Positions 11,853 through 59,421 of a stretch of DNA of 64,000 bases are shown in pieces. Position numbers and translations under genes: made by a program. The notes below the pieces were generated by a model. That model was not told where the DNA came from and did not search any database. It worked only from the letters and a program-made list of their open reading frames with translations. Source of the DNA: a virus (lineage: Duplodnaviria > Heunggongvirae > Uroviricota > Caudoviricetes); IMG/VR virus record IMGVR_UViG_2778261223_000007, positions 12,132-76,131 of that record, one strand, 5' to 3'. Every line of letters starts with the position of its first letter. Positions within the stretch are counted from its first letter, which is position 1.

Positions 11853-12298
11853 TGGGTAACTTTGGAAATTATTTCATTTTTATCATGGCATTTGTTGCCA
11901 TCATTGACCGTTTCATTTTTCGTCGCAAGAGTGTTGAGATTTTGAGTATTGGTGACGCTGTAGTGAAAGAATCCGCTATAGCATTTCCTGTTTCGCTACG
12001 TGTTAAGCGAAGCTGGGTGAGCAATGCTCAAATCGAATATTGGTTGCAAGACCTGAAAAATCCATCTGTGGTTATTTCAGGGAAAACGCGACCAGTTGAC
12101 GCCTCAAAACGCGGTGAGAGAGAAGAGTATTTGCTCATCGATACGAAATATCTTGAGCCAACGAAGTGGGATCTGAAAGTCACATTGACTAACGGTAACT
12201 GCCGACTGAATCCGCTTTATCGCATTTTCCCTATCAATGACTGCATAGAGCGCCAATTTACGATCGAAAAGCGTGAAGGAGACTGGGATGTCAAATAA
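11852..12298 (+). CDS. membrane-anchored protein (P1 LydB-like by position and size)
   Basis: 148 aa, N-terminal hydrophobic helix; start overlaps upstream stop. Confidence 0.35.
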   Translation: MGNFGNYFIFIMAFVAIIDRFIFRRKSVEILSIGDAVVKESAIAFPVSLRVKRSWVSNAQIEYWLQDLKNPSVVISGKTRPVDASKRGEREEYLLIDTKYLEPTKWDLKVTLTNGNCRLNPLYRIFPINDCIERQFTIEKREGDWDVK

Positions 12299-38342: not shown

Positions 38343-38357
38343 TATTAGATATTTGGT

Positions 38358-38374
38358 ATTAATTTTCTAATACA
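38358..38374 (+). promoter_or_regulatory. operator-like variant ATTAATTTTCTAATACA
   Basis: Weaker variant of the motif, upstream of the Lpa-like gene. Confidence 0.3.
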
Positions 38375-38450
38375 ATCATCTTTTTGCCAGTCTATACAGT
38401 TTTAACATTCTCATTATCATCCCCTCGGTCATTTCCTGCCCGGGGGATTA

Positions 38451-41739: not shown

Positions 41740-42777
41740 TTACCAGAGCTTCGCGGCGTACTGCGTTTGGGGGAATGTGTATCCGTAACGTTCTTCGATT
41801 GCTTTGCCGTATTTTTTACGAGCTTCATTCAGTTTAATGCCGGTCAGGTCGTCTCCAGAGGCCATCATTACGTCTAACAATTCCAGATCCATTTTATCCA
41901 GCCTTGCCATTGCTTCACGTGATGTACGTATCTTACGCTCAATGATATGGCGAATAGCCGGATCGGCATCCTCCAGCATCTTAGCGGATTTCTGCTTAAG
42001 GCTTTCATTGCGAATATCGATGTTCCTTAAGATGTACGACTTCGCAACGTAGCTTGGCTGGTGTTTTTCCAGGTCACGAACACGATATAAGTTAAAATCG
42101 CCGAGAAGGCTGCAAGGTACCGATTCGACGCCAGAATAAATTGTAATGCTCCGGCGTTCACCAACATTATTGACAACGGGGATCGTTGTCTTCGGTTGTC
42201 TTGCGAAAACCAATGCGCCATGTGCGCCAACTCTAAAGCGAGAAAGGGCATTGCTGCCTTCGATGTTTGTTGTCAGCACAACATCTGTATATGCCTCTTT
42301 ACGCGCCCGGTAGATCTCGCCTTCAGGCTCAGCTTCAAAGAAGCGCTGTTCTTCTTCAAGAGCACCTACGATTTGAGAAAAAACCCTATTTTTCAGGCTT
42401 TTCTTTATGATTTTGTCGTATTTTTTTAGCAATTGTTCACGTGTAAATGTACGTGTTGTTGTAGCGCTTTGCACAACGACATGCGTGCTTTGATTGGTGT
42501 CCTCAATGATGAATGGGATCGGAGAATATACAGACTCAACAATGTTCGACGCTTTGCCGTCGGCATCGCGGCACATGTCAACGAAGGCTTTCCATTCAGC
42601 AAGACATTTTTCAGCTTCTTCTAATATGTTTTGGTCATGCGTTAATGCAACATGGCGGAATTCCTCGCCAGCATAACTGGTATCATGGAAAACAGAGTTT
42701 GCGACCACCAGCTCTTTCCACCGTTCAGCGGTTTGCAGGAACCGTTTGTACTCTTTCTCGATCGACTTCTTACTCAT
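41740..42777 (-). CDS. hypothetical protein at the immC-equivalent position (candidate repressor or immunity function)
   Basis: 345 aa, convergent with pacB; operator-like motif 42790..42807 overlaps its start region; no recognisable similarity to P1 C1 by eye. Confidence 0.5.
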   Translation of the reverse strand: MSKKSIEKEYKRFLQTAERWKELVVANSVFHDTSYAGEEFRHVALTHDQNILEEAEKCLAEWKAFVDMCRDADGKASNIVESVYSPIPFIIEDTNQSTHVVVQSATTTRTFTREQLLKKYDKIIKKSLKNRVFSQIVGALEEEQRFFEAEPEGEIYRARKEAYTDVVLTTNIEGSNALSRFRVGAHGALVFARQPKTTIPVVNNVGERRSITIYSGVESVPCSLLGDFNLYRVRDLEKHQPSYVAKSYILRNIDIRNESLKQKSAKMLEDADPAIRHIIERKIRTSREAMARLDKMDLELLDVMMASGDDLTGIKLNEARKKYGKAIEERYGYTFPQTQYAAKLW

Positions 42778-42789
42778 TATTCCTACTCG

Positions 42790-42807
42790 ATTTAGTTTTC
42801 TAACATA
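42790..42807 (+). promoter_or_regulatory. operator-like motif ATTTAGTTTTCTAACATA
   Basis: Motif family member; overlaps the start region of the minus-strand gene 41740..42777. Confidence 0.5.
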
Positions 42808-42987
42808 AAATTACTATGACAAATTTATGTCGAATAACAGAGTGAGTAAAGGATCGAACTGTGATTTTTTGTCATCAATTTTAGAAAACCAACCGTAGAA
42901 ACCACACTTCGCTAATTAAAGACCATGAAGGCAACGTGTTACTGGTCATCATCAATCTATGATGGATTAAAAAAAATCGGCATTTTA

Positions 42988-43171: not shown

Positions 43172-44200
43172 ATGAGTGAATTAATTATCTCTGGCAGTTC
43201 CGGTGGTTTTCTGCGCAACATTGGCAAAGAGTACCAGGAAGCCGCAGAAAACTTTATGCGGTTCATGAATGATCAGGGTGCTTATGCGCCGAATACTCTG
43301 CGCGACCTCCGGTTGGTGTTTCATTCCTGGGCGCGCTGGTGTCACGCTCGCCAGCTTGCCTGGTTTCCGATCTCACCAGAAATGGCCCGCGAGTATTTTC
43401 TTCAGTTGCATGATGCCGATCTGGCTTCGACCACCATTGATAAGCACTACGCCATGCTTAACATGCTGCTTTCTCATTGTGGCCTTCCGCCACTTTCGGA
43501 TGATAAAAGTGTTTCTCTGGCTATGCGGCGTATCCGGCGCGAAGCGGCAACGGAAAAAGGCGAACGAACAGGCCAGGCTATACCGCTGCGATGGGACGAC
43601 CTGAAACTGCTCGACGTCCTGTTGTCCAGGTCAGAACGGCTGGTGGACCTGCGCAACCGGGCTTTTCTCTTTGTTGCATACAATACGCTGATGCGTATGT
43701 CGGAAATCTCGCGTATTCGTGTAGGAGATCTGGACCAAACAGGTGACACTGTCACGCTACATATTTCACACACGAAGACAATAACGACCGCCGCCGGGCT
43801 TGATAAGGTGCTTTCCCGTCGCACTACTGCTGTGCTGAATGACTGGCTGGATGTTTCCGGGCTTCGTGAACATCCTGACGCGGTGCTGTTCCCGCCGATA
43901 CACCGTAGCAATAAGGCCAGGATTACGACAACGCCCCTTACTGCACCTGCAATGGAGAAAATATTCAGCGACGCCTGGGTGTTGCTGAATAAAAGGGATG
44001 CCACGCCAAACAAAGGGAGATACCGGACGTGGACCGGGCATAGTGCTCGTGTCGGGGCCGCTATCGATATGGCTGAAAAGCAGGTGTCTATGGTGGAGAT
44101 TATGCAGGAAGGAACCTGGAAGAAACCGGAAACACTTATGCGGTATCTGCGCCGTGGCGGTGTGTCTGTGGGGGCTAATAGCCGCTTGATGGATTCATAA
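43172..44200 (+). CDS. dre: Cre-family tyrosine recombinase (Dre-like)
   Basis: 342 aa; blocks SWARWCHARQLAWFP, AMLNMLLSHCGLPPLSDDKSVSLAMRRIRRE, WTGHSARVGAAIDMA...MRYLR align with Cre (catalytic R, H-x-x-R, Y); cognate rox site upstream. Confidence 0.9.
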   Translation: MSELIISGSSGGFLRNIGKEYQEAAENFMRFMNDQGAYAPNTLRDLRLVFHSWARWCHARQLAWFPISPEMAREYFLQLHDADLASTTIDKHYAMLNMLLSHCGLPPLSDDKSVSLAMRRIRREAATEKGERTGQAIPLRWDDLKLLDVLLSRSERLVDLRNRAFLFVAYNTLMRMSEISRIRVGDLDQTGDTVTLHISHTKTITTAAGLDKVLSRRTTAVLNDWLDVSGLREHPDAVLFPPIHRSNKARITTTPLTAPAMEKIFSDAWVLLNKRDATPNKGRYRTWTGHSARVGAAIDMAEKQVSMVEIMQEGTWKKPETLMRYLRRGGVSVGANSRLMDS

Positions 44201-44218
44201 ATTAAATTTCTAACACAT
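44201..44218 (+). promoter_or_regulatory. operator-like motif ATTAAATTTCTAACACAT
   Basis: Motif family member; immediately after the recombinase stop. Confidence 0.5.
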
Positions 44219-44261
44219 CTTTTTAGATTGATATCTTTGCTGTAAAGTACCCTCGCCTATT

Positions 44262-48711: not shown

Positions 48712-48729
48712 AGCGTTTTACCTCAATGA

Positions 48730-48749
48730 TACTGTTTATTCATACAGTA
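48730..48749. promoter_or_regulatory. LexA (SOS) box TACTGTTTATTCATACAGTA
   Basis: Perfect CTGT-N8-ACAG palindrome between divergent genes humD (minus) and 48902..49252 (plus). Confidence 0.7.
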
Positions 48750-48901
48750 TACATTGAAAAGGCATAGTTTGTGAAAGCGGGGTTTGTAAGCAACGCCGCT
48801 GGCGGCAAGGTCTACGTTCACCTTGTCTCGCTCTTCCTGGCTTTTAGCTGCTATATTTCGATCTGACACAAGAAACCTCCAGGAGTTAGTGGATCAGGCA
48901 C

Positions 48902-49252
48902 ATGCACAATAACGTTCTCAATGTTAGCCGTTCAATTCAGACAATCAGAGACTGCACCAGTGTGGTGGCATCAATCCCATTGCGAAACAGCATAGACGAA
49001 CTGCAAATTCGTGTATTGAATCTGAATCAGGCTAATAAGCAATTGCGCTTTATTTTGACGCTGAAAAGTGAAACAGAGGGGATAAAGCACAGCGTAAAAG
49101 TGTTTTCTGAGGCCATTCTGCTTAATGGGAAGCTCCGGCATCTAGTAAGGCCAGAACGTCAATATCCTGACGTCCTGGCGCGTGAAAAAGACCTTCTTTC
49201 TGAAGTTCAGGATAGGGTGATCGATTTCGTCAAATGCTATCCCCTGCATTGA
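48902..49252 (+). CDS. hypothetical protein, divergent from humD (likely SOS-regulated)
   Basis: 116 aa, ATG start; shares the LexA box region. Confidence 0.4.
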   Translation: MHNNVLNVSRSIQTIRDCTSVVASIPLRNSIDELQIRVLNLNQANKQLRFILTLKSETEGIKHSVKVFSEAILLNGKLRHLVRPERQYPDVLAREKDLLSEVQDRVIDFVKCYPLH

Positions 49253-49358
49253 GGGCAGGTGTTCCCTTCCGCAAAGTAGGGAAAACTGCTATCAAGTTCA
49301 TCACACCATCTGCGATGGTCGTAGCACCAAAACGCCTCCCACGGTGCACGGAAATACT

Positions 49359-49511
49359 TCATCCACCAGGACACTCGATCAGGTATATCTGCTGGTGGCA
49401 GTTCTTCTGGCAATAATTTGCCTGATAATCCCGCGACAGCATTTTTTTGAGGCTCGCGTTCTCTTTTTCAAGCTCATCTACGCGCACCTGTAATTCAGCT
49501 TTCGTTGGCAT
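49359..49511 (-). CDS. small coiled-coil protein (candidate)
   Basis: 50 aa from ATG with GAGG RBS; overlaps 3' end of upstream gene by 17 nt. Confidence 0.25.
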   Translation of the reverse strand: MPTKAELQVRVDELEKENASLKKMLSRDYQANYCQKNCHQQIYLIECPGG

Positions 49512-50577
49512 GGTCCGCCTCATGCTTTTCAGCCACCAGCGGCAATAAAGCCCTGGCCATCTTATGAACCAATAGTGCATCAATAATGCCAAGCGTATGC
49601 CCCGGCTTAATGTTTAATGCCGCCTCAAGGTGACACCTTTCCAAGCCACTTTTCTCGGCTTGTTTATGATGATCTGGTGTAATAACGTCGCCCAAAACAC
49701 GGCTAATTCTTTCTCGTAATTGCTGGGTGCCCGCACTCTTGATCGCTGTATCGTGGAGACGGTTAACCAGTTCGCGATAAACATGCGGCTTAATTCGGAT
49801 ACGTTCACCGGTGACGCCCTTTCCTGGCGCTGGCACCGAACTATCCGGAATATCCGGATAGTTGCCAGCCAGTCTACGCAAAACGGCCTTAACAGCCTCA
49901 ATACGGTCATCATCGCAATTTTCCAGCGTATCTATGCGATCGAGCATGATGATGGCGTTATCAATATCAGGATTGCCGGTCCACTCATTACCGCGATTGG
50001 ATTCGGCAGCCTGGTTGCCGCGTACTGGTTGATTATCGGCTTTACCCAGTCTGTCGTTGCTGCATGAATGCCCTTCCAGCCAGGCCAATGCTTGTCGCAT
50101 GAAATACGCAATATGTTTGCCGTGGTAATCGTCTTCATCGATGTGAAAAGCGATACTGCGGATGTATTCAATTGCGTTTTCAATGGCCTCCGGCGTTATC
50201 GGCGCTGACATATTTTGATTTTGGAGTGCCAAGACGCGGCTGGCATCCTCAACACCTTTAACGGCATCTGCGCAGTAGTTATAGCGATTGCATTCCACTA
50301 ACTTCTGCTTGAGATTTTCAATTGCTTGCGCGACATCAGCCTGCAATTCCCGAACTGGCGGAGTAGCATATAACGGCACCCACTTTGGTGCTTTATCCCC
50401 GACCGAACGCTGATACCAGTCACCCGGTTTGTATTCATAAAACTCACCAACAGGCTCTGCTTCCAGCGATGCCAGCGCAATTTCATAAGCACGGCGCTCA
50501 ATATTGTCTCGAACGTCCAGACTGCCTATGCGCTCTTTGATTTCTTTAATCAGTTCTTTGTCGGTTAAAACGGTCAT
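49495..50577 (-). CDS. hypothetical protein
   Basis: 360 aa, ATG with GAGG RBS. Confidence 0.5.
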   Translation of the reverse strand: MTVLTDKELIKEIKERIGSLDVRDNIERRAYEIALASLEAEPVGEFYEYKPGDWYQRSVGDKAPKWVPLYATPPVRELQADVAQAIENLKQKLVECNRYNYCADAVKGVEDASRVLALQNQNMSAPITPEAIENAIEYIRSIAFHIDEDDYHGKHIAYFMRQALAWLEGHSCSNDRLGKADNQPVRGNQAAESNRGNEWTGNPDIDNAIIMLDRIDTLENCDDDRIEAVKAVLRRLAGNYPDIPDSSVPAPGKGVTGERIRIKPHVYRELVNRLHDTAIKSAGTQQLRERISRVLGDVITPDHHKQAEKSGLERCHLEAALNIKPGHTLGIIDALLVHKMARALLPLVAEKHEADHANES

Positions 50578-50587
50578 AATTTATGCC

Positions 50588-50824
50588 TCAGTTGTAGCCA
50601 ATCGGATTAACAGCAACAAGAACGCCGTCGGCGAATAAGTCTTTAATGAGGTGTTCGCTCGGCTTGCCTTTTTCGTACTCTTCAATAAGGTAAGTGTCGC
50701 CATTTTCATTGATATAAACAGGAAGGATGGAGCCGTTGATAAAGTAGGTTCCGTTATTGTCGAGGATTTTTGCCTCGGCGATTTGTTTTTTGGTAAAACT
50801 CTCTTCTTTTGTCAAAGTTGCCAT
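50588..50824 (-). CDS. hypothetical small protein (frame stays open upstream to 51043)
   Basis: 78 aa from the ATG preceded by AAGGA; MATLTKEESFTKKQIAEAKILDNNG... Confidence 0.4.
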   Translation of the reverse strand: MATLTKEESFTKKQIAEAKILDNNGTYFINGSILPVYINENGDTYLIEEYEKGKPSEHLIKDLFADGVLVAVNPIGYN

Positions 50825-51044
50825 ATCAGTTTCCTTGTATGGGTTAATTTTATTGTGTAGTGCCCCGAATGGTTTACACACTATATCGATATACAGGTCA
50901 ACTAACGGTTCAAATGCTTTCCCCACTAGAACAGTCACTAATATTGAGGATATCGGTATCAGCAGCACGATAAACAGAATGAGAAACAAGAGTTCTATAG
51001 CCCTGCTTCTTCGCGGATATTCTTTTCTGAATAATGTCGGCACA

Positions 51045-51260
51045 TCACTCTCCTTTGTTGATCCTCAAAATTTTATGACCTGGCGCAAAAGCACGCGTTT
51101 TGTCGGCGCTTATTCGCCAGCCATCCTTACGCGCCTCTTTTGCACAGCCAGCCCATGACGTACCGATATACTCACCGAAGTCTGGCGTTTGATATTTACC
51201 ATTTGTACACTGGCGACAATCACAGTAGAGATGCATGGTGTAACTTGCGGCAATAGCCAT
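51045..51260 (-). CDS. small Cys-rich (zinc-binding-like) protein
   Basis: 72 aa from ATG with AAGGAG RBS; YCDCRQC ... GC cysteine cluster. Confidence 0.4.
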   Translation of the reverse strand: MAIAASYTMHLYCDCRQCTNGKYQTPDFGEYIGTSWAGCAKEARKDGWRISADKTRAFAPGHKILRINKGE

Positions 51261-51439
51261 ATCAGTCTCCTTTAGTGCGCAGGTGGTTTTTCCAGCGGTT
51301 TTGCGCCGCGCTGCCCTTATCTCGGACTCCCTCTCTGGCAATTCCAGAAAATGAAAACAACACCACACGACGATTGCTAACTCTCAACCACTGGCTGGGA
51401 TAGCAAAGTCTGTATACACGGGAGATAAGCATCTTAGCT

Positions 51440-52087
51440 TTACGGTTTTTCATCGTTTTGCTCTCCTGCGTCTCCTTTGATGCAAATGCCAGCGACGCGT
51501 GGCACATTAACTTCCACGATGCGCACTGTTGGTTTGTACATCTCAATCGCTGTCAGCCAGTCAGCGCCAGTCATGCGCTTTTCTGCATCGCCATTAGTCC
51601 ACTTAACCGGTACACCAATAGCCTTCATCGCGATTTCTATTTCCCCGGCGATGGCGCTTTTTCCGCAACCAGTAAAACCAGAAACAACGACAAGAACTTC
51701 ACCTTTGGCTGGTTTTATTTCCCGTGCTTCCAGTTCTGCTATGCGCTTTTCTGATGCTTCAAGTAACGCCTGCTTATCGCGTAGCGCTTCTTCCAGTTCA
51801 GCAACATGGCATTCACTATCAATAAGGTTGTTCTCTGCTGCTTCCAGCTCAACACGCAGCTTCCCTACCGTTAGCGCAATATCCTCGTTCTCCTGATCGC
51901 GGCTTTTGATGTATTGCAGGTTTCTTTCCCGTTCATCCAACAATGCCAGCGCGATATCTGGCGAAAAGTGCTTCATAAAATCGTTAAGCGCATTAATTCG
52001 CTGATCGAAAGGCATTACAGGTGCTTCACCAGCAATTTTTGTTTTTTCAGCGATTTCACGAAGCTTTTGATAATCAATCTTGCTCAC
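51440..52087 (-). CDS. Ead/Ea22-like coiled-coil prophage protein
   Basis: 215 aa; central coiled coil and C-terminal SGFTGCGKSAIAGEIEIAMKAIG block resemble the Ea22/Ead family of lambdoid prophages (from memory). Confidence 0.45.
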   Translation of the reverse strand: MSKIDYQKLREIAEKTKIAGEAPVMPFDQRINALNDFMKHFSPDIALALLDERERNLQYIKSRDQENEDIALTVGKLRVELEAAENNLIDSECHVAELEEALRDKQALLEASEKRIAELEAREIKPAKGEVLVVVSGFTGCGKSAIAGEIEIAMKAIGVPVKWTNGDAEKRMTGADWLTAIEMYKPTVRIVEVNVPRVAGICIKGDAGEQNDEKP

Positions 52088-52373
52088 TGGTTGCCTCCGC
52101 TTCCCACGTTTTCAGACTTTCACCACAGAATGGGCAAAATGAAACTCGAATAGGCGATTTAGAAAATTCACCAGACCGCAGCATGATCAGGTCCTGTGAA
52201 TGAATTAATTCATGGTTATAGACTTTGTATTTCAGCAGGCCTTTTCGCGTCGTGTATTCAGCATCCTGCTCCAGAGATTGTGCCAGCGCCGCGCACGGTT
52301 CTATTTTTCTGCCATTAATCAAACAAGTGGAGATTCTGCACTTTGCAGCTCCGTCACCGTTACCTTGACTCAT
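52074..52373 (-). CDS. small zinc-ribbon-like protein
   Basis: 99 aa; CRISTC and CPFCGE cysteine pairs. Confidence 0.35.
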   Translation of the reverse strand: MSQGNGDGAAKCRISTCLINGRKIEPCAALAQSLEQDAEYTTRKGLLKYKVYNHELIHSQDLIMLRSGEFSKSPIRVSFCPFCGESLKTWEAEATSEQD

Positions 52374-52386
52374 TGCGTTGTTCCCA

Positions 52387-53382
52387 TCAGTTATTAAACG
52401 TGATCACTCCGCGCTCGATGGCGAAGTCGAAAAGCTGGTTAGCGGCTACATAAAGTCGTATGCCATGTGCTTTTTCCCATGCCCGGACATCGTTTTCTGC
52501 GCTTCTGGCGCAGTCATCGCAAAGAGGAACAGCCCAGCGGTCGTGTTCGTTTAACGAGCGGACGCGGTACATGAACGGGTGGTTAACTTTGCCACCGCAT
52601 CCGATGCACGGACGAGAAACCACAAACCGGAGATAAGCTGGGCTTTTACCGAGGACCACTTTTGGTCGGCGCATATAAAGCAGGCCGGAATCCTCATCTA
52701 CAGACAGGTTGACGATCTGCTCTGCGGTTATGTCCACCAGCTCGCGGGTACTGTGCTCCCAAGTGATATCTGATTCTTTCAGCGTACCGGTAGGGATTTC
52801 AGTTTTTGGCTGACAAAATGCAATGCGACCGGCTTCATCTGGCAGCTCATCTTTCAGATTCCGGCGAATGGCCCAAAAAGTGAGTTCAACCATGCTCAGA
52901 TCGCGTTCTGGCGGTAGTTTTAACTCGCTCGCAGCCCAGTTCATAACCCAGTTGGCGCGATTCAGGGATAACTGGTCGTCCAGCTTGCTGTACCCCTTCA
53001 TCATGTATTCCGCATCATGCTTCCAGCACAGGCGAACGGCAGAGCCGTTATAGAAATGAGTGGTTAGCTGGTGGCTACAATCGCGCTTATCGTGCGCCTG
53101 GCAATCGTGGATATTGGAACTTACCCAATGAACAAGCGAATCTTCACCGCCTAACGCGTTAAATACGCGCTCGCTTTGAAAAAACGGTTTCAGAGACTGG
53201 TTGGCAACCAGCGAATAATTCAGATCCACTACGCCATCTGGCGTGTTTTCAGCCTGTTCACGCGGAAGTGGGGAGATAATGAAACGGCGACCTGCGCCAA
53301 TGTAGTTACTGGTGGGCTTGTCTACCGGAAAGACAGCCACACCAGCTCCGTTTACGAAATGAGGTGTGATTATTGCACTCAT
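52387..53382 (-). CDS. DUF968-like prophage protein with C-terminal Cys cluster
   Basis: 331 aa; C-terminal PCIGCGG...HP...R...WAVPLCDDCAR motif; first gene downstream of a paired operator-like motif at 53422..53454. Confidence 0.45.
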   Translation of the reverse strand: MSAIITPHFVNGAGVAVFPVDKPTSNYIGAGRRFIISPLPREQAENTPDGVVDLNYSLVANQSLKPFFQSERVFNALGGEDSLVHWVSSNIHDCQAHDKRDCSHQLTTHFYNGSAVRLCWKHDAEYMMKGYSKLDDQLSLNRANWVMNWAASELKLPPERDLSMVELTFWAIRRNLKDELPDEAGRIAFCQPKTEIPTGTLKESDITWEHSTRELVDITAEQIVNLSVDEDSGLLYMRRPKVVLGKSPAYLRFVVSRPCIGCGGKVNHPFMYRVRSLNEHDRWAVPLCDDCARSAENDVRAWEKAHGIRLYVAANQLFDFAIERGVITFNN

Positions 53383-53421
53383 AATGTATACCGACTCTGT
53401 TTTGTTCCGAGCGGTAAAATA

Positions 53422-53454
53422 ATGTGTTAGAAAACTAAAATCAATGTTCTAACG
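53422..53454 (-). promoter_or_regulatory. paired operator-like motifs in inverted orientation (GTTAGAA ... TTCTAAC, 14 bp apart)
   Basis: Full motif at 53422..53441 plus inverted partial copy at 53444..53454; upstream of the minus-strand operon starting at 53382. Confidence 0.5.
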
Positions 53455-53480
53455 TAATTTTGAGTGCGTAAATGATTTGA

Positions 53481-54173
53481 TCAGACTTTAAGCTGCCCTC
53501 CCTTCACCTGCATTAGCGTCAGATTTCCGCAAAAAACCGCGCCCGTGTCTATGTAGTGCTGATTCCAGTATGCTTTTGGTCTTCGTACCGGTGTGTGCCC
53601 AAAGATAAAGCGATCTGCGCCTGTGATTTCTCCACCAATGCCATCTATCGAATCACCGACGCGACTGCGCGACCAGACAACATCAAAAAGCGACACATCC
53701 TTACCGAACTGGTACTCTCCACCTGGATAGTCGGCATGGGCTATAACGATAGTTTCATGCCCGGTGTTCAACTCAATGATATATGGCAGACGCTTTACCA
53801 GCTCCACCAGCGCCCAGGCTAATATTTCCTGATCAGTGTCCAGCATGAAGAACCATTGTCCGCCATTCATTAGCCAGTTATTCACGTTGCCATCAGGACT
53901 TAACGCATCAAGCATCAACCGCTCATGGTTCCCCATTACTGCCCTGAACCAGGGCATCTGCAATAGTTCCAGACATTCGACATTTTCAGTACCGCGATCG
54001 ATAAGGTCGCCAACAGATATCAGTAAATCCTGCGCCGGGTCAAAATCCACACGATGGAGTTCGGACATCAGTCTGGTGTAGCAACCATGCAGATCACCAA
54101 CAACCCATATGTTTCTGTAGCCAGAACCATCAATACGGCTATATAAATTCACTTCATGCATAGTCTGGATCAT
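53481..54173 (-). CDS. Ser/Thr protein phosphatase (calcineurin-like metallophosphoesterase, lambda PPase-like)
   Basis: Motifs GDLHGC, GDLIDRG, GNHE; start set at MIQTMHEV (GGAGAAGG RBS), which overlaps the upstream gene stop. Confidence 0.65.
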
Positions 54174-54481
54174 GCGGCAACCTTCTCCCGCAGCCAGATA
54201 CAAACTGGACCATCTTCAGTGTCATGAATAGAGCCAACAAACCAGCCTTCACCCTCTGGTCGCTCCGGTTCCCAGGCGGCAATATCGGGACCAGCTGCGT
54301 CCAGATCAAAATCATCTTCATCCATACTGCGAATAGTCCACTGAAGATTATTTTCCTTCATCCAGGCGTCAAATTCCTCAGTGGAAATATATTCACGACC
54401 TGCGCAAAACTTCTCATACTCCGGATGTGTCCAGCAGCCATATTCATCACGTTCTACCGGCATTTCTTTAATGATGCTCAC
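54170..54481 (-). CDS. hypothetical acidic protein
   Basis: 103 aa, operon context. Confidence 0.4.
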
Positions 54482-54702
54482 TCTTCATCCTCCAAGTCGG
54501 CAACGGCCTCCATCACATCAGAACCGCGAATAACCGCAAAAGCACGGCAGGCCATTTCAAACACCTGTTGTTCTTGCGGATGCGGTGACTCCCAATACTT
54601 AAAACCAGGTCGATGCTCGTAACCCATCATGGAATAAAAATCGCCAGCAAGTTCAATCGCGGCATCAACAAGTTCGCGATTTGTCATCGTCTGTTCTGTC
54701 AT
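54478..54702 (-). CDS. hypothetical protein
   Basis: 74 aa, overlaps neighbours in operon. Confidence 0.35.
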   Translation of the reverse strand: MTEQTMTNRELVDAAIELAGDFYSMMGYEHRPGFKYWESPHPQEQQVFEMACRAFAVIRGSDVMEAVADLEDEE

Positions 54703-54973
54703 TTGGTTTCTCCTGTCTGAACATCACTATCATCAGGTCGCCTTTTATCGCTATTCTGGCTGTTGTGCCTGGTTCAATGCGGCTAAGTTCAAATGCGTCA
54801 TAGAACGCTTCTAATGCCTTCTGGCGTAGTTCCTGTTTGCGCCGTTTTTTCCACTCTTTTAGGAAAATGGAACCCAGCCATCGCCAGGTACGGGACATGA
54901 TGTAAAGCCAACCGAGAAGTGCCAGACCGGTATTTAGGGCCGTATCGATCGTTATCGTGGTGTCGATATTCAC
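54665..54973 (-). CDS. membrane protein, hypothetical
   Basis: 102 aa; hydrophobic helix LALLGWLYIM. Confidence 0.35.
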   Translation of the reverse strand: MNIDTTITIDTALNTGLALLGWLYIMSRTWRWLGSIFLKEWKKRRKQELRQKALEAFYDAFELSRIEPGTTARIAIKGDLMIVMFRQEKPNDRTDDDKSRTC

Positions 54974-55251
54974 TGTGGTGGCTCCTGCTTTTCTGCCTTT
55001 AATACCATGCGAGAACCATCATCCAGCTCCCAATTAATTTCACCGCCTTCAGCCATGACTAGATGCCAAACGAGTTGTGCGGCCTCGTTGGTTACATCAC
55101 GACCGCGATCATTGCCGACACGACGTTTTGTTCCATCCCCTAAGTCACGCATTTTTGCCAACACGATGGTTTTTGATAGCGGTGAAAAACCAAGCTGTAG
55201 TCGTGCGGTATTACTCACTGTTTGCCTCCTTTGCGAAGCTGTTCCGCCCAT
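54970..55251 (-). CDS. hypothetical protein (start uncertain)
   Basis: 93 aa open frame; no clear RBS. Confidence 0.25.
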   Translation of the reverse strand: MGGTASQRRQTVSNTARLQLGFSPLSKTIVLAKMRDLGDGTKRRVGNDRGRDVTNEAAQLVWHLVMAEGGEINWELDDGSRMVLKAEKQEPPQ

Positions 55252-55703
55252 TCTTCAAGGGATTTCTCCGCATATTCACCGGACAGGCCATCAATCGGGT
55301 GCGGTTCATTAGCCAACTCTTCTTTCGCTGACAGAATCATGCGCGTAACGTCGAAAACTTCACGTAAAGACTTATTGATAAATCCGTGGTTGAAAGCAGC
55401 AGCAAGACGGCTTGCGGTATAGTTAATCCCCTCGTTGCGAGCCGCCGCACGAATTTCAGCCAGAAAAGCATCGGTGGCTGGAGTTTCGCTGTGGTGCAGG
55501 GCATCGTTGATAATCATTGCAGCAACTCCGGCCTGACCTGCATCCGTGACCGACACATGCTCAAGAGTTACAGCCATTGCATGTTTCAGCCCAGCATTCT
55601 CCGCCGCCAGCGCAGCACACGCTTTCTCAAGTCGGGAAATTTCCGTTACATACTCAGCGTTACGCTCTGCCAGTTGTGCGGGCGTTAAACCTTCAGACTT
55701 CAT
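55215..55703 (-). CDS. hypothetical protein
   Basis: 162 aa. Confidence 0.4.
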   Translation of the reverse strand: MKSEGLTPAQLAERNAEYVTEISRLEKACAALAAENAGLKHAMAVTLEHVSVTDAGQAGVAAMIINDALHHSETPATDAFLAEIRAAARNEGINYTASRLAAAFNHGFINKSLREVFDVTRMILSAKEELANEPHPIDGLSGEYAEKSLEEWAEQLRKGGKQ

Positions 55704-56010
55704 ACACTCTCCTTTCGAAATAAACGTACTGATTAATCATGCCTAGGGGCATTTCGAGTTTTTCCGCGATCTCACGGCGGGGAACACCACACCGATGAAG
55801 CTGCCGTGCCAGTTCTATATCGCCCTGCCGGTATTTGGCTGACGGGTGAAAGTCTCCTTTCAGAATCATGCAGATCCGCAGTTGCCGCGCTTTGGTTCTG
55901 ACAGCACTACCGGTACGCCCGATCAGCCTCCCAATACTCTCGACTGTCATAGTCCCGGCGCACTGGCGGAGTATCATGATTTCTGCCCTTCCCCATCCCC
56001 GCCAGCTCAC
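55693..56010 (-). CDS. putative HTH DNA-binding protein
   Basis: 105 aa; two HTH-like stretches (ESIGRLIGRTGSAVRTKARQL; RREIAEKLEMPLGMINQYV). Confidence 0.35.
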   Translation of the reverse strand: MSWRGWGRAEIMILRQCAGTMTVESIGRLIGRTGSAVRTKARQLRICMILKGDFHPSAKYRQGDIELARQLHRCGVPRREIAEKLEMPLGMINQYVYFERRVYEV

Positions 56011-56618
56011 GCAGAACTCCTTCTAACCAAAAGCACGCCATCTTCAGAAACAACGTTGCAGGACTTCAGGTAATTCATTGCCTCTTTCGGTAATGGATTC
56101 TTTGGATCGGCGTTTGCCAGGGATTTCGATAACCTCATGATAAATTTGATCATTACCTTCTGGCGGAGCTTGTGCTCATGAGATAAAGACAGGTAATAGG
56201 AAATGGTATGGGCTAAACGCTCACGAAGCTGTTCTGTGCCGTGATATACAGCAGCGATATCACACAGTGCATTGACCAGTTCCCGGTAAATATGCGGAGC
56301 AACCTGGCATTCAATGTTGGTTGGTGACTCATAAATTACAGTCAGCCCCAGCTTTTCAGCCAGCGCGTGCTCTGCACGAGCACCAATCGATTCCTCCCAT
56401 CGATTGAGCAAGTAGATCGCATCAGCAGAACGCACCATTGCCAGGCAAATATCCATGTATTCACTCTGACAAAGGCCACCAGGTAACACAGCTGGATTCA
56501 GAACGATATGCCCTTCAGCCATCAGCTCGCTCGCTTTCGCATTAAACGCAGCACGGTTGTAATCTGGATAACCAGTCATCGGCCCCGCGATGTAAATTTT
56601 CAAAACACGTTTCACCAT
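56007..56618 (-). CDS. DUF4406-like protein (nucleoside 2-deoxyribosyltransferase-like fold)
   Basis: IYIAGPMTGYPDYN motif; start set at MVKR, which overlaps (TGATG) the stop of the upstream small ORF. Confidence 0.45.
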   Translation of the reverse strand: MVKRVLKIYIAGPMTGYPDYNRAAFNAKASELMAEGHIVLNPAVLPGGLCQSEYMDICLAMVRSADAIYLLNRWEESIGARAEHALAEKLGLTVIYESPTNIECQVAPHIYRELVNALCDIAAVYHGTEQLRERLAHTISYYLSLSHEHKLRQKVMIKFIMRLSKSLANADPKNPLPKEAMNYLKSCNVVSEDGVLLVRRSSA

Positions 56619-56773
56619 CAAAATTTCCCCAAAATCGTGACGCAAAACATAAGCACTGCGAAAAGCTCAATACCAAGCTCAAGTAGCGCCAACGCCCCGA
56701 AAAACAACACATAGAACAGGCCAATCTCATTCACAGATGGCTGGTGGATCGCACTTAAAGCTATAAGCATCAT
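56618..56773 (-). CDS. small hydrophobic protein
   Basis: 51 aa, GGAGG RBS, coupled to downstream gene; not in ORF track (below 60 aa). Confidence 0.35.
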   Translation of the reverse strand: MMLIALSAIHQPSVNEIGLFYVLFFGALALLELGIELFAVLMFCVTILGKF

Positions 56774-56810
56774 GTCCTCCAAACAGTTATCAGGAATGAT
56801 ATTAATGTTT

Positions 56811-56829
56811 TGTGTTAGAAAATCAATTT
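56811..56829 (-). promoter_or_regulatory. operator-like motif (rc AAATTGATTTTCTAACACA)
   Basis: Motif family member; in the divergent region between 56773 (minus) and ref (plus). Confidence 0.5.
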
Positions 56830-56890
56830 TGAATATCTAATCATTTTGATCAATCATAGAAAAATCGCTGAAAAGTAAGAGGCAGCCATC

Positions 56891-57469
56891 ATGCAGAAAC
56901 AGAGCTATTGGGAGAAACAGAGACAAAAAGCCATGCAAAAATTGGCTGACCCAGCCTGGCGAGAGGAACAAAGGGCAAAGTGCCTTCAACAAGCTCAACG
57001 CCAGCAGCAGCGAGCGAGAGAAAAAGCCGCATCGCCTGAATATCGGCAAAAGAAAATTGAAAAAGCAAAGCAATATGAACAGCGGAGAAAAGATAAAGCT
57101 GTATCCGCTCCGTCCAAAAAAACACGCACGTCACGCGGCCTGAAAGGCAGATCACTCACAGCCGATGAACGCCGGATACAGACCGCTATCGGTGCTCTCC
57201 CCTGCATTGCCTGCCATATTCACGGGCAACATAGCCCAGTGGTATCCCTGCACCATATCTTCGGGAGAACGGCAGAGAACGCGCATAAATATGTCCTCCC
57301 TTTGTGTAAATGGCACCACCAGTACGCAGCGCCAGCCGAGGTCCGAGAACAATATCCCTGGCTGGTCCCTGTTCATGCTGACGGAAAAATAGGCGGAAAA
57401 GCAGATTTCATGCGGCACAATGCCGATGAAATGACGTTGTATCAGATGGCGATTGAATTGATAAATTAG
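56891..57469 (+). CDS. ref: HNH endonuclease, Ref-like (recombination enhancement function)
   Basis: 192 aa; basic N-terminus, then ALPCIACHIHG...SLHHIFGRT...LPLCKWHHQ HNH core and the AAPAEVREQYPWLVPVHADG block that I recall from P1 Ref; flanked by operator-like motifs. Confidence 0.7.
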   Translation: MQKQSYWEKQRQKAMQKLADPAWREEQRAKCLQQAQRQQQRAREKAASPEYRQKKIEKAKQYEQRRKDKAVSAPSKKTRTSRGLKGRSLTADERRIQTAIGALPCIACHIHGQHSPVVSLHHIFGRTAENAHKYVLPLCKWHHQYAAPAEVREQYPWLVPVHADGKIGGKADFMRHNADEMTLYQMAIELIN

Positions 57470-57480
57470 TTTTCTAACAT
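57463..57480 (+). promoter_or_regulatory. operator-like motif AAATTAGTTTTCTAACAT
   Basis: Motif family member; overlaps the ref stop. Confidence 0.5.
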
Positions 57481-57800
57481 TTTAAGTTGAATTGTAAATT
57501 TCTCCGATGTACATTCACTACCGATTGGCACACCGGTCAACTTTTTGAGACAAACTGTTTAGTTTTTCGTATTATTGCCGCCGCTATACCTATGGCGGTG
57601 CAATATAGGTGGCTGAAAAGCCCCCGTTGACTCACGGTGTTCCAGCCTTTATTGCGCCGCCACCAGACCGTGGAACAGTCGATGGCGGCTCCGAAAGCAA
57701 GGAGTCACTACACTATGAACAGCTACTGTCTTTTCCCATCACTCGTTGTCCGCCACTCACGCGATAATCTGCATTCTTTACTCGCGCTGGGGGTGTCAAA

Positions 57801-57968: not shown

Positions 57969-58072
57969 AATACTGACTGTTGCGCCCTGGCATTATCGTG
58001 GGGTATATTTCTACGGCACCTTAGAAAAACGGGTGCCGGGATTGGAACCCCGGATAATGTCAAAGGCGACAC

Positions 58073-58094
58073 AGACGCCGAAAGCGTCTTTTTT
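58073..58094 (+). terminator. rho-independent terminator
   Basis: GACGC-CGAAA-GCGTC followed by TTTTTT. Confidence 0.6.
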
Positions 58095-58139
58095 GTGTCA
58101 TGCCATCGCACAGCCATACGTAGCGTTTAGCTCAGAGAT

Positions 58140-58270
58140 CAATGGTAGTGCTGGCTGGGCTGCCGAAAGGCAGGCCGGTTCCCTTTGACGCCGGTAGTTC
58201 CAACCCAGTCAGTGCTACCGCCATTGAGATTGGAACCTCACGCGGTAGCTCCTTAACTTAGTCAAAGGAG
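58140..58270 (+). ncRNA. candidate c4-like antisense RNA region of immI-like module 2
   Basis: CCTTTGAC at 58182..58189 is complementary to GTCAAAGG at 58261..58268, which overlaps the AAGGAGG RBS of the icd-like ORF; further pairs GTTCCAA/TTGGAAC and GGTAGTGCTG/CAGTGCTACC (with G-U pairs). Confidence 0.25.
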
Positions 58271-58279
58271 GCTGCCAAT

Positions 58280-58495
58280 ATGGCTACTATCCCTACCCCA
58301 ACTCATTCTGAATTTATCTGGCGTTTCTATTCCTGCCAAAAACACCTGTATATCTGCGTCATGGCTGCTACCGAAGCAGAGGCGCGCTCATACCTTCCCG
58401 AAGAACCCTGCATTTTTGCTGCTCGCTTCACTCTTGATGCGATGGAGATCCTCAATTACTGGAATCTGCCGATGAACTGCGTGGAGGCGCACTGA
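58280..58495 (+). CDS. Icd-like small protein (immI-like module 2)
   Basis: 71 aa paralog of 22087..22311; AAGGAGG RBS; stop overlaps antirepressor start. Confidence 0.5.
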   Translation: MATIPTPTHSEFIWRFYSCQKHLYICVMAATEAEARSYLPEEPCIFAARFTLDAMEILNYWNLPMNCVEAH

Positions 58496-59421
58496 TGAAT
58501 CTGTCCATCTCTCAAAAAGCGACAATGACCAGCATTGAGATCGCGGAACTGGTAGGTAAGCGCCCTGATAACGTTAAACGCACCATTGAACACCTGGCGG
58601 AACGGGGCGTAATATCTTTTCCTCAAATTGAGGAAAAGCCCACCGCAGGCCGCCCGGCGAGCTATTACGTCTTTGAAGGCGAACAAGGCAAGCGTGACAG
58701 TATCATTGTCGTCGCACAGCTTTCTCCCGAATTTACCGCCCGGCTGGTGGACCGCTGGCGCGAACTGGAGAATGCCCGGGTACAGTTAAAATCAAAAGCC
58801 GAAATCCTGGCTGAAATGGCGCAAATGCATCTTGAGCATGAACGCCGGATCAACGCCGTTAATGCCCAGGTAGCCGAAGTATCGGCACAAGTGTCCAAAG
58901 TCGCTGAAACCGTCGAGCAAATCAAGAAAGGCAATATTCCGGAAGGCTACATTGGCTACCGCCAGCTGGCGGCGAAATGTGGCCTGACTGAAGCCAAATG
59001 CCGAAACCTGGTTAACGCTTACCGGATTCCCACCGATACGCATGAGTTTTTAACTCCCGATGGTTTGCTTGCGCAACGCTCCATTGTGGCCCTGGCCCCC
59101 TTCCGGAAAGCCTTTAAGCAGGTGATGTCGGAGGCAGAACCACGCAATAAACGCTGGTATCATCCAAAGATGGGGATGTTTCAGGCAATCCACCATCCTG
59201 TGCCTGAAAGTCCAAAGGCAAACCTGTCGTTGCATACCGCCAGAGAGAGGATTAAAACAGGCTATGCAATCGTATGCCGTCGAGCATCCTGGCCTGAAGG
59301 TGTATGGGTGTGGCCCGAAGGTGGATCACGAAAGCACTGGCGCACTATCCGGGATGGGAAAATCCATGCGATTGATTTAGCTCCAGAGGATGTTGTTGCT
59401 ACGGACTGGATTGTTAGTTAA
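58495..59421 (+). CDS. antirepressor: Rha-family N-terminal domain fused to DUF2829-like C-terminal domain
   Basis: 308 aa; N-terminus MTSIEIAELVGKRPDNVKRTIE; C-terminus YAIVCRRASW...DLAPEDVVATDWIVS corresponds to the separate ORF 23015..23215 of module 1. Confidence 0.6.
   Translation: MNLSISQKATMTSIEIAELVGKRPDNVKRTIEHLAERGVISFPQIEEKPTAGRPASYYVFEGEQGKRDSIIVVAQLSPEFTARLVDRWRELENARVQLKSKAEILAEMAQMHLEHERRINAVNAQVAEVSAQVSKVAETVEQIKKGNIPEGYIGYRQLAAKCGLTEAKCRNLVNAYRIPTDTHEFLTPDGLLAQRSIVALAPFRKAFKQVMSEAEPRNKRWYHPKMGMFQAIHHPVPESPKANLSLHTARERIKTGYAIVCRRASWPEGVWVWPEGGSRKHWRTIRDGKIHAIDLAPEDVVATDWIVS

Follow-up and report, generated by a model that had tools for sequence, protein, structure and literature searches.

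Gene content and candidate C1 operators of a hypervariable accessory region in a D6-like plasmid prophage

The subject of this analysis is a 7.4-kb array of minus-strand genes at positions 49359-56773 of a 64,000-nucleotide stretch of viral DNA, in the following called the window (positions 12,132 to 76,131 of the IMG/VR record IMGVR_UViG_2778261223_000007). Judged by its sequence, the window is a D6-like plasmid prophage and hence a relative of phage P1. In megablast comparisons the block was 99.9% identical at 100% coverage to pYU39_89 (CP011430), a plasmid prophage of Salmonella Typhimurium ST213, and to two sister plasmids, and 99% identical over 94% of the query to Escherichia phage D6 (NC_050154 / MF356679). 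The former was published as a D6-like plasmid prophage (PMC6799933), the latter has been placed in the second subgroup of P1-like phage-plasmids (PMC10879196). The block probably represents a non-essential accessory region of this prophage, which consists of two C1-repressed early operons with a conserved gene frame and two slots for exchangeable cassettes.

An earlier note, which was made from the letters of the sequence, had counted at least 16 co-directional and mostly overlapping open reading frames (ORFs) between the humD region and ref. Mapping of the ORF list onto the D6 annotation resulted in 17 genes at 49359-56770, all of them on the minus strand. Eleven of the 16 junctions between them overlap by 1-38 nucleotides (nt), four are gaps of 1-13 nt, and a single one is an intergenic region of 98 nt (53383-53480). 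Every gene found a PHROG family match with an expect value (E) of at most 4e-26, therefore they are real genes and not chance ORFs. The position is also as had been described, because the hot remnant and humD flank the block on one side and ref (56891-57469, plus strand; Pfam RecA_dep_nuc) on the other. Likewise, the named gene types, i.e. a phosphatase, DUF968, Ea22-like and DUF4406 proteins and small Cys-containing or hydrophobic proteins, were all recovered by domain annotation with Pfam and PHROG; the Pfam families recognised were DUF4014, Ead_Ea22, DUF968, Metallophos, DUF4752, DUF7446 and DUF4406. The features are given below; lengths are in amino acids (aa), and loci refer to the comparison of D6-like elements described thereafter.

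56770 to 53481, minus strand: predicted operon A, orf88 to ppp
53382 to about 49237, minus strand: predicted operon B, DUF968/PdcB-like gene to orf105
56771-56890, no strand: regulatory region A, between the divergent ref (plus) and orf88 (minus), with a candidate operator at 56809-56831 (minus)
53383-53480, no strand: regulatory region B, with a candidate bivalent operator at 53421-53458 (GTTAGA-N16-TCTAAC, 28 bp)
41740-42777, minus strand: gene of the D6-type C1 repressor, 345 aa (D6 orf1, annotated 'similar to P1 gene C1')
56618-56770, minus strand: orf88, 50-aa hydrophobic protein, first gene of operon A, conserved frame (phrog_8890, E 2e-35; 9 of 9 loci)
56007-56618, minus strand: orf89, DUF4406 protein, conserved frame (PF14359, E 1e-33; phrog_355)
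55693-56010, minus strand: orf90, 105-aa putative helix-turn-helix (HTH) DNA-binding protein, conserved frame (phrog_323 'transcriptional regulator', E 4e-26)
55215-55703, minus strand: 162-aa chimeric gene, slot A (phrog_614, phrog_368)
54970-55251, minus strand: DUF7446 gene, slot A (PF24233, E 8e-18; 3 of 9 loci)
54665-54973, minus strand: orf94, DUF4752 protein, conserved frame (PF15944, E 7e-41)
54478-54702, minus strand: orf95, 74-aa acidic protein, conserved frame, like phiV10 gp47 (phrog_4132, E 2e-41; 89.5% DNA identity to phiV10)
54170-54481, minus strand: orf96, 103-aa acidic protein, conserved frame (phrog_1372, E 1e-53; 9 of 9 loci)
53481-54173, minus strand: ppp (orf97), lambda-type (NinI) Ser/Thr protein phosphatase, last gene of operon A (PF00149; phrog_246)
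52387-53382, minus strand: orf98, DUF968 protein, homologue of P1 PdcB, first gene of operon B (PF06147)
52074-52373, minus strand: orf99, 99 aa, slot B, like P7 upf87.4 (phrog_4030; 95% DNA identity to P7)
51440-52087, minus strand: orf100, Ead/Ea22 coiled-coil protein, slot B (PF13935, E 4e-22)
51262-51453, minus strand: orf101, 63 aa, slot B, like phiV10 gp51 (phrog_1380; 94% DNA identity to phiV10)
51045-51260, minus strand: orf102, 71-aa Cys-containing protein, slot B, like phiV10 gp52 and 933W L0068 (phrog_926)
50588-51043, minus strand: orf103, slot B, a DUF4014 half and a second module in frame (PF13198 on residues 2-71)
49495-50577, minus strand: orf104, 360-aa mosaic protein, slot B (phrog_60, phrog_21459)
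49237-49521, minus strand: last gene of the block, orf105 (49359-49511, 50 aa) plus an out-of-frame tail

The comparison covered nine D6-like loci, namely D6 and eight E. coli and Salmonella plasmids; in PLSDB, at least 24 D6-like plasmids span 80% or more of the block. All nine keep ref, region A, orf88, the DUF4406, HTH and DUF4752 genes, orf95, orf96, ppp, region B and the DUF968 gene. Variation is found in two internal segments, slot A (approximately 54970-55703) between the HTH and the DUF4752 gene, and slot B (49237-52373), which extends from orf99 to orf105. Here the gene content varies freely between otherwise near-identical elements: orf99 is partly or wholly replaced in several of the loci, and the other alleles include several Ea22-like genes, a ClpX-type zinc-finger gene, ASCH, eaa, DUF551 and PAPS-reductase-family genes. 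D6 itself differs from the window in slot A, where 473 bp of the block (54973-55445) stand for 1176 bp of D6 comprising orf92, orf93 and the 3' end of orf91. These 473 bp contain the DUF7446 gene, whose start codon is uncertain (RefSeq has a shorter 82-aa form), and the Eae-like C-terminal half of the 162-aa chimeric gene. The N-terminal half of this chimera matches D6 orf91 with the breakpoint at 55445/55446, whereas its C-terminal half shows 96% DNA identity to the 3' end of the Eae-like phiV10 gp46 (96.3% over 55214-55482 of the window).

The earlier note had assigned the gene families to lambdoid early regions rather than to P1, which holds for only a part of the block. Segments of 200-670 bp are 81-96% identical at the DNA level to the 933W xis-exo region (L0065-L0069) and to phiV10 gp46-gp52, which indicates recent exchange with lambdoid-type phages; the parts concerned are orf100 to orf103, orf95 and the C-terminal half of the 162-aa gene. 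Among them, orf100 is 84-92% identical to phiV10 gp48 and 933W L0069, and the DUF4014 N-terminal half of orf103 resembles 933W L0067. In P1-like elements, approximately 30% of the genes have been recently exchanged (PMC10879196). On the other hand, ppp, pdcB and pmgU are P1 genes, and the depositors' notes on the D6 record, in which the block is orf88-orf105, name P1 ppp, pdcB and pmgU as well as the lambdoid phages phiV10, 933W, mEp213, ES18 and SPN1S. The content of the block is nevertheless not conserved across the P1 family: DNA common to P1 or P7 is limited to ppp (89%), a pmgU piece (95%), a P7 upf87.4 piece (95%) and a few shorter P7 fragments (87-91%). The pmgU piece lies in orf104, where 49530-49870 are 95-96% identical to P1 and P7. 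For the first three genes of operon A (orf88, DUF4406, HTH), D6 is the only phage with a near match. A block of the same content and position throughout P1-family genomes, which the earlier note had named as speaking against its interpretation, was therefore not observed.

From these affinities one could assume that the whole 7.4-kb block is a single foreign insertion from a lambdoid prophage into a P1-family backbone, a mosaic origin which the earlier note had considered. Many cassettes with 81-96% identity to lambdoid-type phages and the small parts matched by P1 or P7 would fit such an event. We regard it as very unlikely. The frame and both regulatory regions are present in nine of nine D6-like plasmids while just two internal slots vary, which argues against one foreign insertion, and the same holds for the P1 genes mentioned above and for the C1-operator-controlled operons with ppp and similar cassettes in P1 and P7. 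Furthermore, the G+C content of the block (0.42-0.53) is in line with that of its flanks, the putative promoters bear the phage's own candidate operator, and among the loci examined no element of the D6 lineage has ref abutting hot/humD without the frame. On sequence comparison, the block is accessory DNA that is passed on within the D6 lineage and contains two slots for exchange.

A search for repeats that could serve as attC-like or other systematic cassette boundary elements gave only short two-copy matches, two of which are of interest here. The first is GCCATATCAGT(T/C)TCCTT at 50820 and 51256 (50820-50836 and 51256-51272), which on the coding strand, AAGGA(A/G)ACTGATATGGC, is a junction of ribosome-binding site, stop and start codon. 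One copy lies inside orf103, where two modules are read as one ORF; its PHROG matches are phrog_1832 on residues 1-71 and phrog_8930 on residues 36-151. The second (50462-50484 and 51936-51958) is a conserved Ea22/EaA-type N-terminal segment. These two short repeats coincide with likely recombination points.

The second line of evidence is related to the control of the block. The two operator-like motifs that the earlier note had given at 53422..53454 and 56811..56829 turned out to be real and non-random. Their common core TTTCTAACA occurs 10 times in the window compared to 0.5 expected copies, and a weight matrix built from 12 sites detected 15 sites in the window and 18 in the D6 genome, compared to approximately 1.3 in shuffled sequence. 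The D6-specific motif is asymmetric and reads (A/T)ATTA(G/A)TTTTCTAACA(C/T). The 15 sites in the window span 20519-61250, for example 42787-42809 (upstream of c1), 57461-57483 (downstream of ref), 44197-44219 and 38354-38376; three are located in the block, at 53421-53443 (minus), 53436-53458 (plus) and 56809-56831 (minus). In D6, sites are found upstream of c1, lpa, repL, both c4/icd/ant regions, ref, the hrdC-dmt operon and the pmgR/pmgS area, and these targets match the C1 regulon annotated in P1, in which ref is known to be C1-repressed (PMC4713147). The operator of P1 itself was rejected as the operator of this element, because its consensus ATTGCTCTAATAAATTT gave no match in the whole window with up to three mismatches. 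The C1 homologue of the window, which has no Pfam match, shares only 20% identity with P1 C1 over 242 residues (BLASTP, E 9e-8), which fits a changed DNA specificity, and an operator copy (42787-42809) stands directly upstream of its gene. Hence, we consider the 15 sites as candidate operators of a diverged D6-type C1 repressor, whose binding we infer from their sequence and placement.

Both regulatory regions of the block are built in the same way and are kept in all nine relatives while neighbouring genes vary. In each of them, 38 nt separate the main site from the first start codon (of orf88 and orf98, respectively); the site covers the -35-like TTGATT and the spacer of a putative promoter, and the inverted pair spans 28 bp, the same as the bivalent operator Oc1ab of P1. 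In region A the main site is CAAAATTGATTTTCTAACACAAA with a weight-matrix score of 24.3, overlapping a weak promoter read by eye as TTGATT-16 nt-TAATAT; an intact GTTAGA-N16-TCTAAC pair is present in five of the nine loci. In region B the scores are 28.7 (minus) and 15.2 (plus), and the operator overlaps a weak promoter, also read by eye, of the form TTGATT-17 nt-TATTTT. The predicted promoter function of these hexamers is putative. Taken together, the comparison supports that the two motifs behave like operators heading two transcription units. No terminator-like site was found between ppp and the operator of region B.

This arrangement bears on two further explanations. The genes could be morons, i.e. 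lysogenic-conversion genes expressed from the resident plasmid for the benefit of the host, as it has been discussed for other cargo of the element such as glnS and tciA/B (PMC6799933). But a candidate repressor operator lies over each of the two putative promoters, no single gene is framed by a promoter and a terminator of its own, and the genes follow one another so closely that stop and start codons overlap, which makes this explanation highly improbable. Even less credence can be given to the assumption of virion morphogenetic genes, which follows the historical P1 names pmgT, pmgU etc. and is reflected in the D6 annotation note 'similar to P1 gene pmgU; putative morphogenetic function'. 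The P1 counterparts are mostly non-essential for plaque formation: according to CRISPR interference and tabulated earlier work this applies to pmgO-pmgQ, pmgS-pmgV, ppp, pap and pdcB, and for pmgN and pmgR the two sources disagree, each gene being essential in just one of them (PMC10695390). A published P1 transcriptome gave no values for these genes. Moreover, the P1-type late-promoter pattern (-22 box plus -10) has no match inside the block, and the gene content differs freely among otherwise near-identical D6-like elements.

For the gene products the evidence is of different quality. The phosphatase is the clearest case. It carries the motifs GDLHGC, GDLIDRG and GNHE, matches the lambda phosphatase (PDB 1G5B) with E 1.6e-92 over residues 10-226 and is 89% identical to P1 and P7 ppp at the DNA level; three motifs together with full-length similarity identify it as a lambda-type Ser/Thr phosphatase. 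For orf90, a weak Pfam match to Sigma70_r4_2 was obtained, and relatives are named 'DNA-binding protein' in RefSeq.

The DUF4406 protein orf89 was modelled with AlphaFold at a mean predicted local distance difference test (pLDDT) of 75, with values of 83-98 in the N-terminal domain. Foldseek searches with this domain gave 2a0k, 6qai and 8pqp as top hits, and nucleoside 2-deoxyribosyltransferases as well as the nucleotide N-glycosidases Rcl, MilB and BcmB were matched at probability 1.00, but only with template modelling (TM) scores of approximately 0.4-0.5 and a best E of 2e-4. S77-x-G79-x3-E83 is invariant in 48 homologues, with E83 as putative equivalent of the nucleophile. Hence, orf89 is likely an enzyme with a nucleoside 2-deoxyribosyltransferase/N-glycosidase fold, as far as the model permits. 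Its C-terminal PmgU-like helical module is shared with orf104 (42% identity, E 1e-10). This module of approximately 55 residues (PH-V/I-YRELVN...GT-x-QLRER) covers residues 256-309 of orf104 (49650-49812) and 100-154 of orf89 (56157-56321), and across several PHROG families it is fused to different N-terminal domains. The mosaic orf104 combines it with an EaA/Ea22-type N-terminus, and its residues ~236-349 match P1 pmgU. A relation of orf104 to P1 PmgT was rejected, because there is no protein similarity and the DNA match is to pmgU.

The assignment of orf98 to DUF968 is solid (PF06147, 153.5 bits compared to a cut-off of 27.8; Cys clusters present), and the protein is 38% identical to P1 PdcB over 341 alignment columns (E 8e-76). 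Four Cys residues and H280 are invariant among homologues. In the model, the closest solved fold to the C-terminal zinc domain is the HNH fold of P1 Ref (PDB 3PLW). The protein is thus likely a Ref-like zinc/HNH-fold protein and, going by this model, a putative nuclease at most. A DUF968 gene that is 50% identical occurs in a more distant member of the P1 supercluster (L018, Logan contig SRR33769978; 3192-4184 and 8846-9898), where it adjoins umuC-like and SRAP genes instead of ppp. That contig also carries a C1-family repressor (PF27008) and a cre-like recombinase; at the positions of D6 pacB/pacA it has two unassigned ORFs, one of 504 aa and one cut by the end of the locus.

Among the remaining products, orf100 is a clear Ead/Ea22 protein (PF13935, 79.9 bits compared to a cut-off of 27), and the 162-aa gene matches Ea22-related PHROGs only. 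In the C-terminal domain of orf100 we noticed GFTGCGKS (residues ~136-143), which fits the Walker A pattern GxxxxGKS; no ATPase family match was obtained for this protein.

The question arises whether the block is a counter-defence or host-takeover island, in which several cassettes inhibit immunity or shut host functions early. The earlier note had such roles in mind, and they are compatible with an accessory region of two C1-repressed operons. For the genes, early expression under a repressor is predicted, and P1 can dispense with their counterparts (PMC10695390). Proteins that are small and often acidic (orf95, orf96), together with slots of rapid exchange, would suit this role, as would the modelled nucleotide N-glycosidase-type fold of orf89, the modelled HNH-like fold of orf98 and the PAPS-reductase-family gene in slot B of relatives. 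But no member is known to match a characterised anti-defence protein, and no PADLOC, NCBIfam or PDB sequence matches were found beyond ppp. In detail, none of 10 block proteins scanned against the defence-system proteins of PADLOC-DB gave a match at E <= 0.001, NCBIfam provided no names for block proteins, PDB sequence searches with the DUF4406, DUF968 and Ea22-like proteins returned nothing meaningful, and an anti-defence name appeared in none of the NCBIfam, Pfam and PDB searches. Furthermore, relatives have been characterised only in the exo-xis region of lambda and Stx phages, with ea22 among them; they are early genes and affect the choice between lysis and lysogeny, not host defence (PMC7093339, PMC10834534). 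We therefore regard a counter-defence island as possible but unlikely.

The observations are most consistent with an accessory region of two C1-repressed operons that would work as follows. Each operon would start at a weak sigma-70-type promoter, of which the -35 box and the spacer are covered by an operator of the C1-like repressor. As long as the prophage resides as a plasmid, C1 (41740-42777) would be bound at both sites, and both operons as well as the divergent ref would be silent. Upon induction or infection both would be transcribed as early genes, and read-through from operon A into operon B is likely, because no terminator separates them. The frame genes would be inherited vertically in the D6 lineage, whereas the slot cassettes may be traded with temperate phages of enterobacteria, lambdoid ones among them, through homologous recombination, which would take place where genes adjoin and within conserved N-terminal segments. 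The products, i.e. the phosphatase, the N-glycosidase-fold enzyme, the Ref-like protein, the HTH protein and the Ea22 coiled-coils, may modulate host physiology or the course of lysis and lysogeny early, and would be dispensable for particle formation. A bolder version can be formulated, in which the D6-lineage C1 with its re-specified 28-bp bivalent operator (GTTAGA-N16-TCTAAC) gates a two-slot exchanger that samples the lambdoid pool, and some cassettes or frame genes (DUF4406, DUF968, orf95, orf96) act as counter-defence or host-takeover factors just after derepression. This version is speculative and rather doubtful.

It must be mentioned that several observations do not sit easily with the proposed control and functions. 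The promoter hexamers are weak, with four of six matches each, albeit at a position conserved in the nine loci, and a scan for consensus promoters at a threshold of 9 of 12 reported nothing at either regulatory region. In the window and in D6 the left half-site of region A is degenerate (ATTAGA for GTTAGA). The end of operon B is tentative. As to orf98, the model is of moderate confidence (mean pLDDT 66) and the catalytic HH pair of Ref aligns with YR, therefore a nuclease activity is no more than putative.

The 3' end of the block requires a correction, because 49359 is the stop of a frameshifted remnant. DNA alignment and translations revealed a 10-bp deletion at 49429/49430, common to the window, D6 and pYU39_89, which splits orf105. 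In four other D6-like plasmids the gene is intact, encodes 94 aa and extends to window position 49237, where it overlaps the end of the convergent orf106. The intact protein has an N-terminal leucine-zipper-like helix and a C-terminal CPQC motif, and the reconstructed 94-aa sequence gave no Pfam match. The sole terminator-like hairpin (49354-49336) was rejected as the end of the operon, since in relatives it sits within the coding sequence of this gene. Compared to D6 and one further locus (L012), the DUF4752 gene has 11 additional codons, which reach over the start of orf95, because one A is lost in a poly-A run (54665-54702), so that the block is without one base at the end of this gene. The loss also occurs in pYU39_89; a real mutation and a homopolymer sequencing error are both possible.

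Some features beside the block were also noticed. The operator copy at 57461-57483 precedes an ImmI-like region with Rfam matches to isrK (58016-58094, plus strand, 62.7 bits) and the C4 antisense RNA (58138-58225, plus strand, 77.1 bits), the latter confirming one of the two c4 regions; icd (58280-58495) and the antirepressor gene (58495-59421) are located just downstream, and D6 has a second such region elsewhere. On the opposite flank, the ORF of hot (DNA polymerase III theta-like; 48723-48869) encodes 48 aa compared to 87 aa in P1. Within it, 21 nt upstream of the humD start, lies a LexA-type box CTGTTTATTCATACAG (48732-48747), which adjoins a promoter-like site (48775-48746).

The sequence of the block, its genes and their lambdoid affinities are already known from the GenBank records of D6 and pYU39_89, and the equivalent region of P1-like phage-plasmids has been described as hypervariable and non-essential. 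Hence, the block itself is not new and its discovery value is low. Possible modest additions to the public annotation are the candidate operator motif with a regulon map for the D6-type C1 repressor and the model-based fold assignments for the DUF4406 and PdcB-like DUF968 proteins, which stay leads at the fold level; a further by-product is that the conserved frame can now be told apart from the two exchange slots. Operator map, slots and folds could guide experiments on early accessory genes of the P1 family, and the slots mark where cargo can enter D6-like plasmids, which circulate in Salmonella and E. coli.

Compared with known systems, D6 and pYU39_89 agree with the block in the type of element, position, gene order and regulatory regions. 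P1 and P7 have co-directional operons headed by C1 operators on the hot/humD side, namely pmgN-pmgQ behind Oppp, pmgR, pmgS and pap behind OpmgR, and pmgT-pmgV up to hot behind OpmgT. They resemble the block in that the genes are non-essential and co-directional, stand under repressor operators, include ppp and pmgU-type sequence and are hypervariable between relatives. Eight highly variable regions have been described in P1-like phage-plasmids, and the pmgT-humD part corresponds to 'variable region 8' among them (PMC9603915); P7, RCS47 and JL22 carry Ea22-like and other lambdoid-type cassettes in the equivalent operons, as it is the case here. The block differs from P1 in its operator sequence and its C1 protein, which is merely 20% identical. 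Furthermore, the pdcB homologue directly follows ppp and is not found beside lpa, the other flank is ref and not the gene 26 baseplate operon, the homologues of pmgR and pmgS are located elsewhere in D6, and the orf88-DUF4406-HTH head is absent from P1 and P7. Despite the similar fold model, orf98 and P1 Ref (PDB 3PLW) share no significant sequence similarity (E 0.13). The same gene families are found in the lambdoid xis-exo region (ea or b-region; 933W L0065-L0069), in the early array gp46-gp52 of phiV10 and in lambda NinI, i.e. EaA-like, DUF4014 and Ea22 proteins, small Cys proteins and the lambda phosphatase, and these arrays share the tight packing and the early-gene status predicted for the block. 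However, the lambdoid copies are driven by pL or pR under CI/N control and lie beside int-xis or replication genes, whereas the copies in the block belong to a plasmid prophage and are placed in a lineage-specific frame behind a putative operator of the P1 C1 type.

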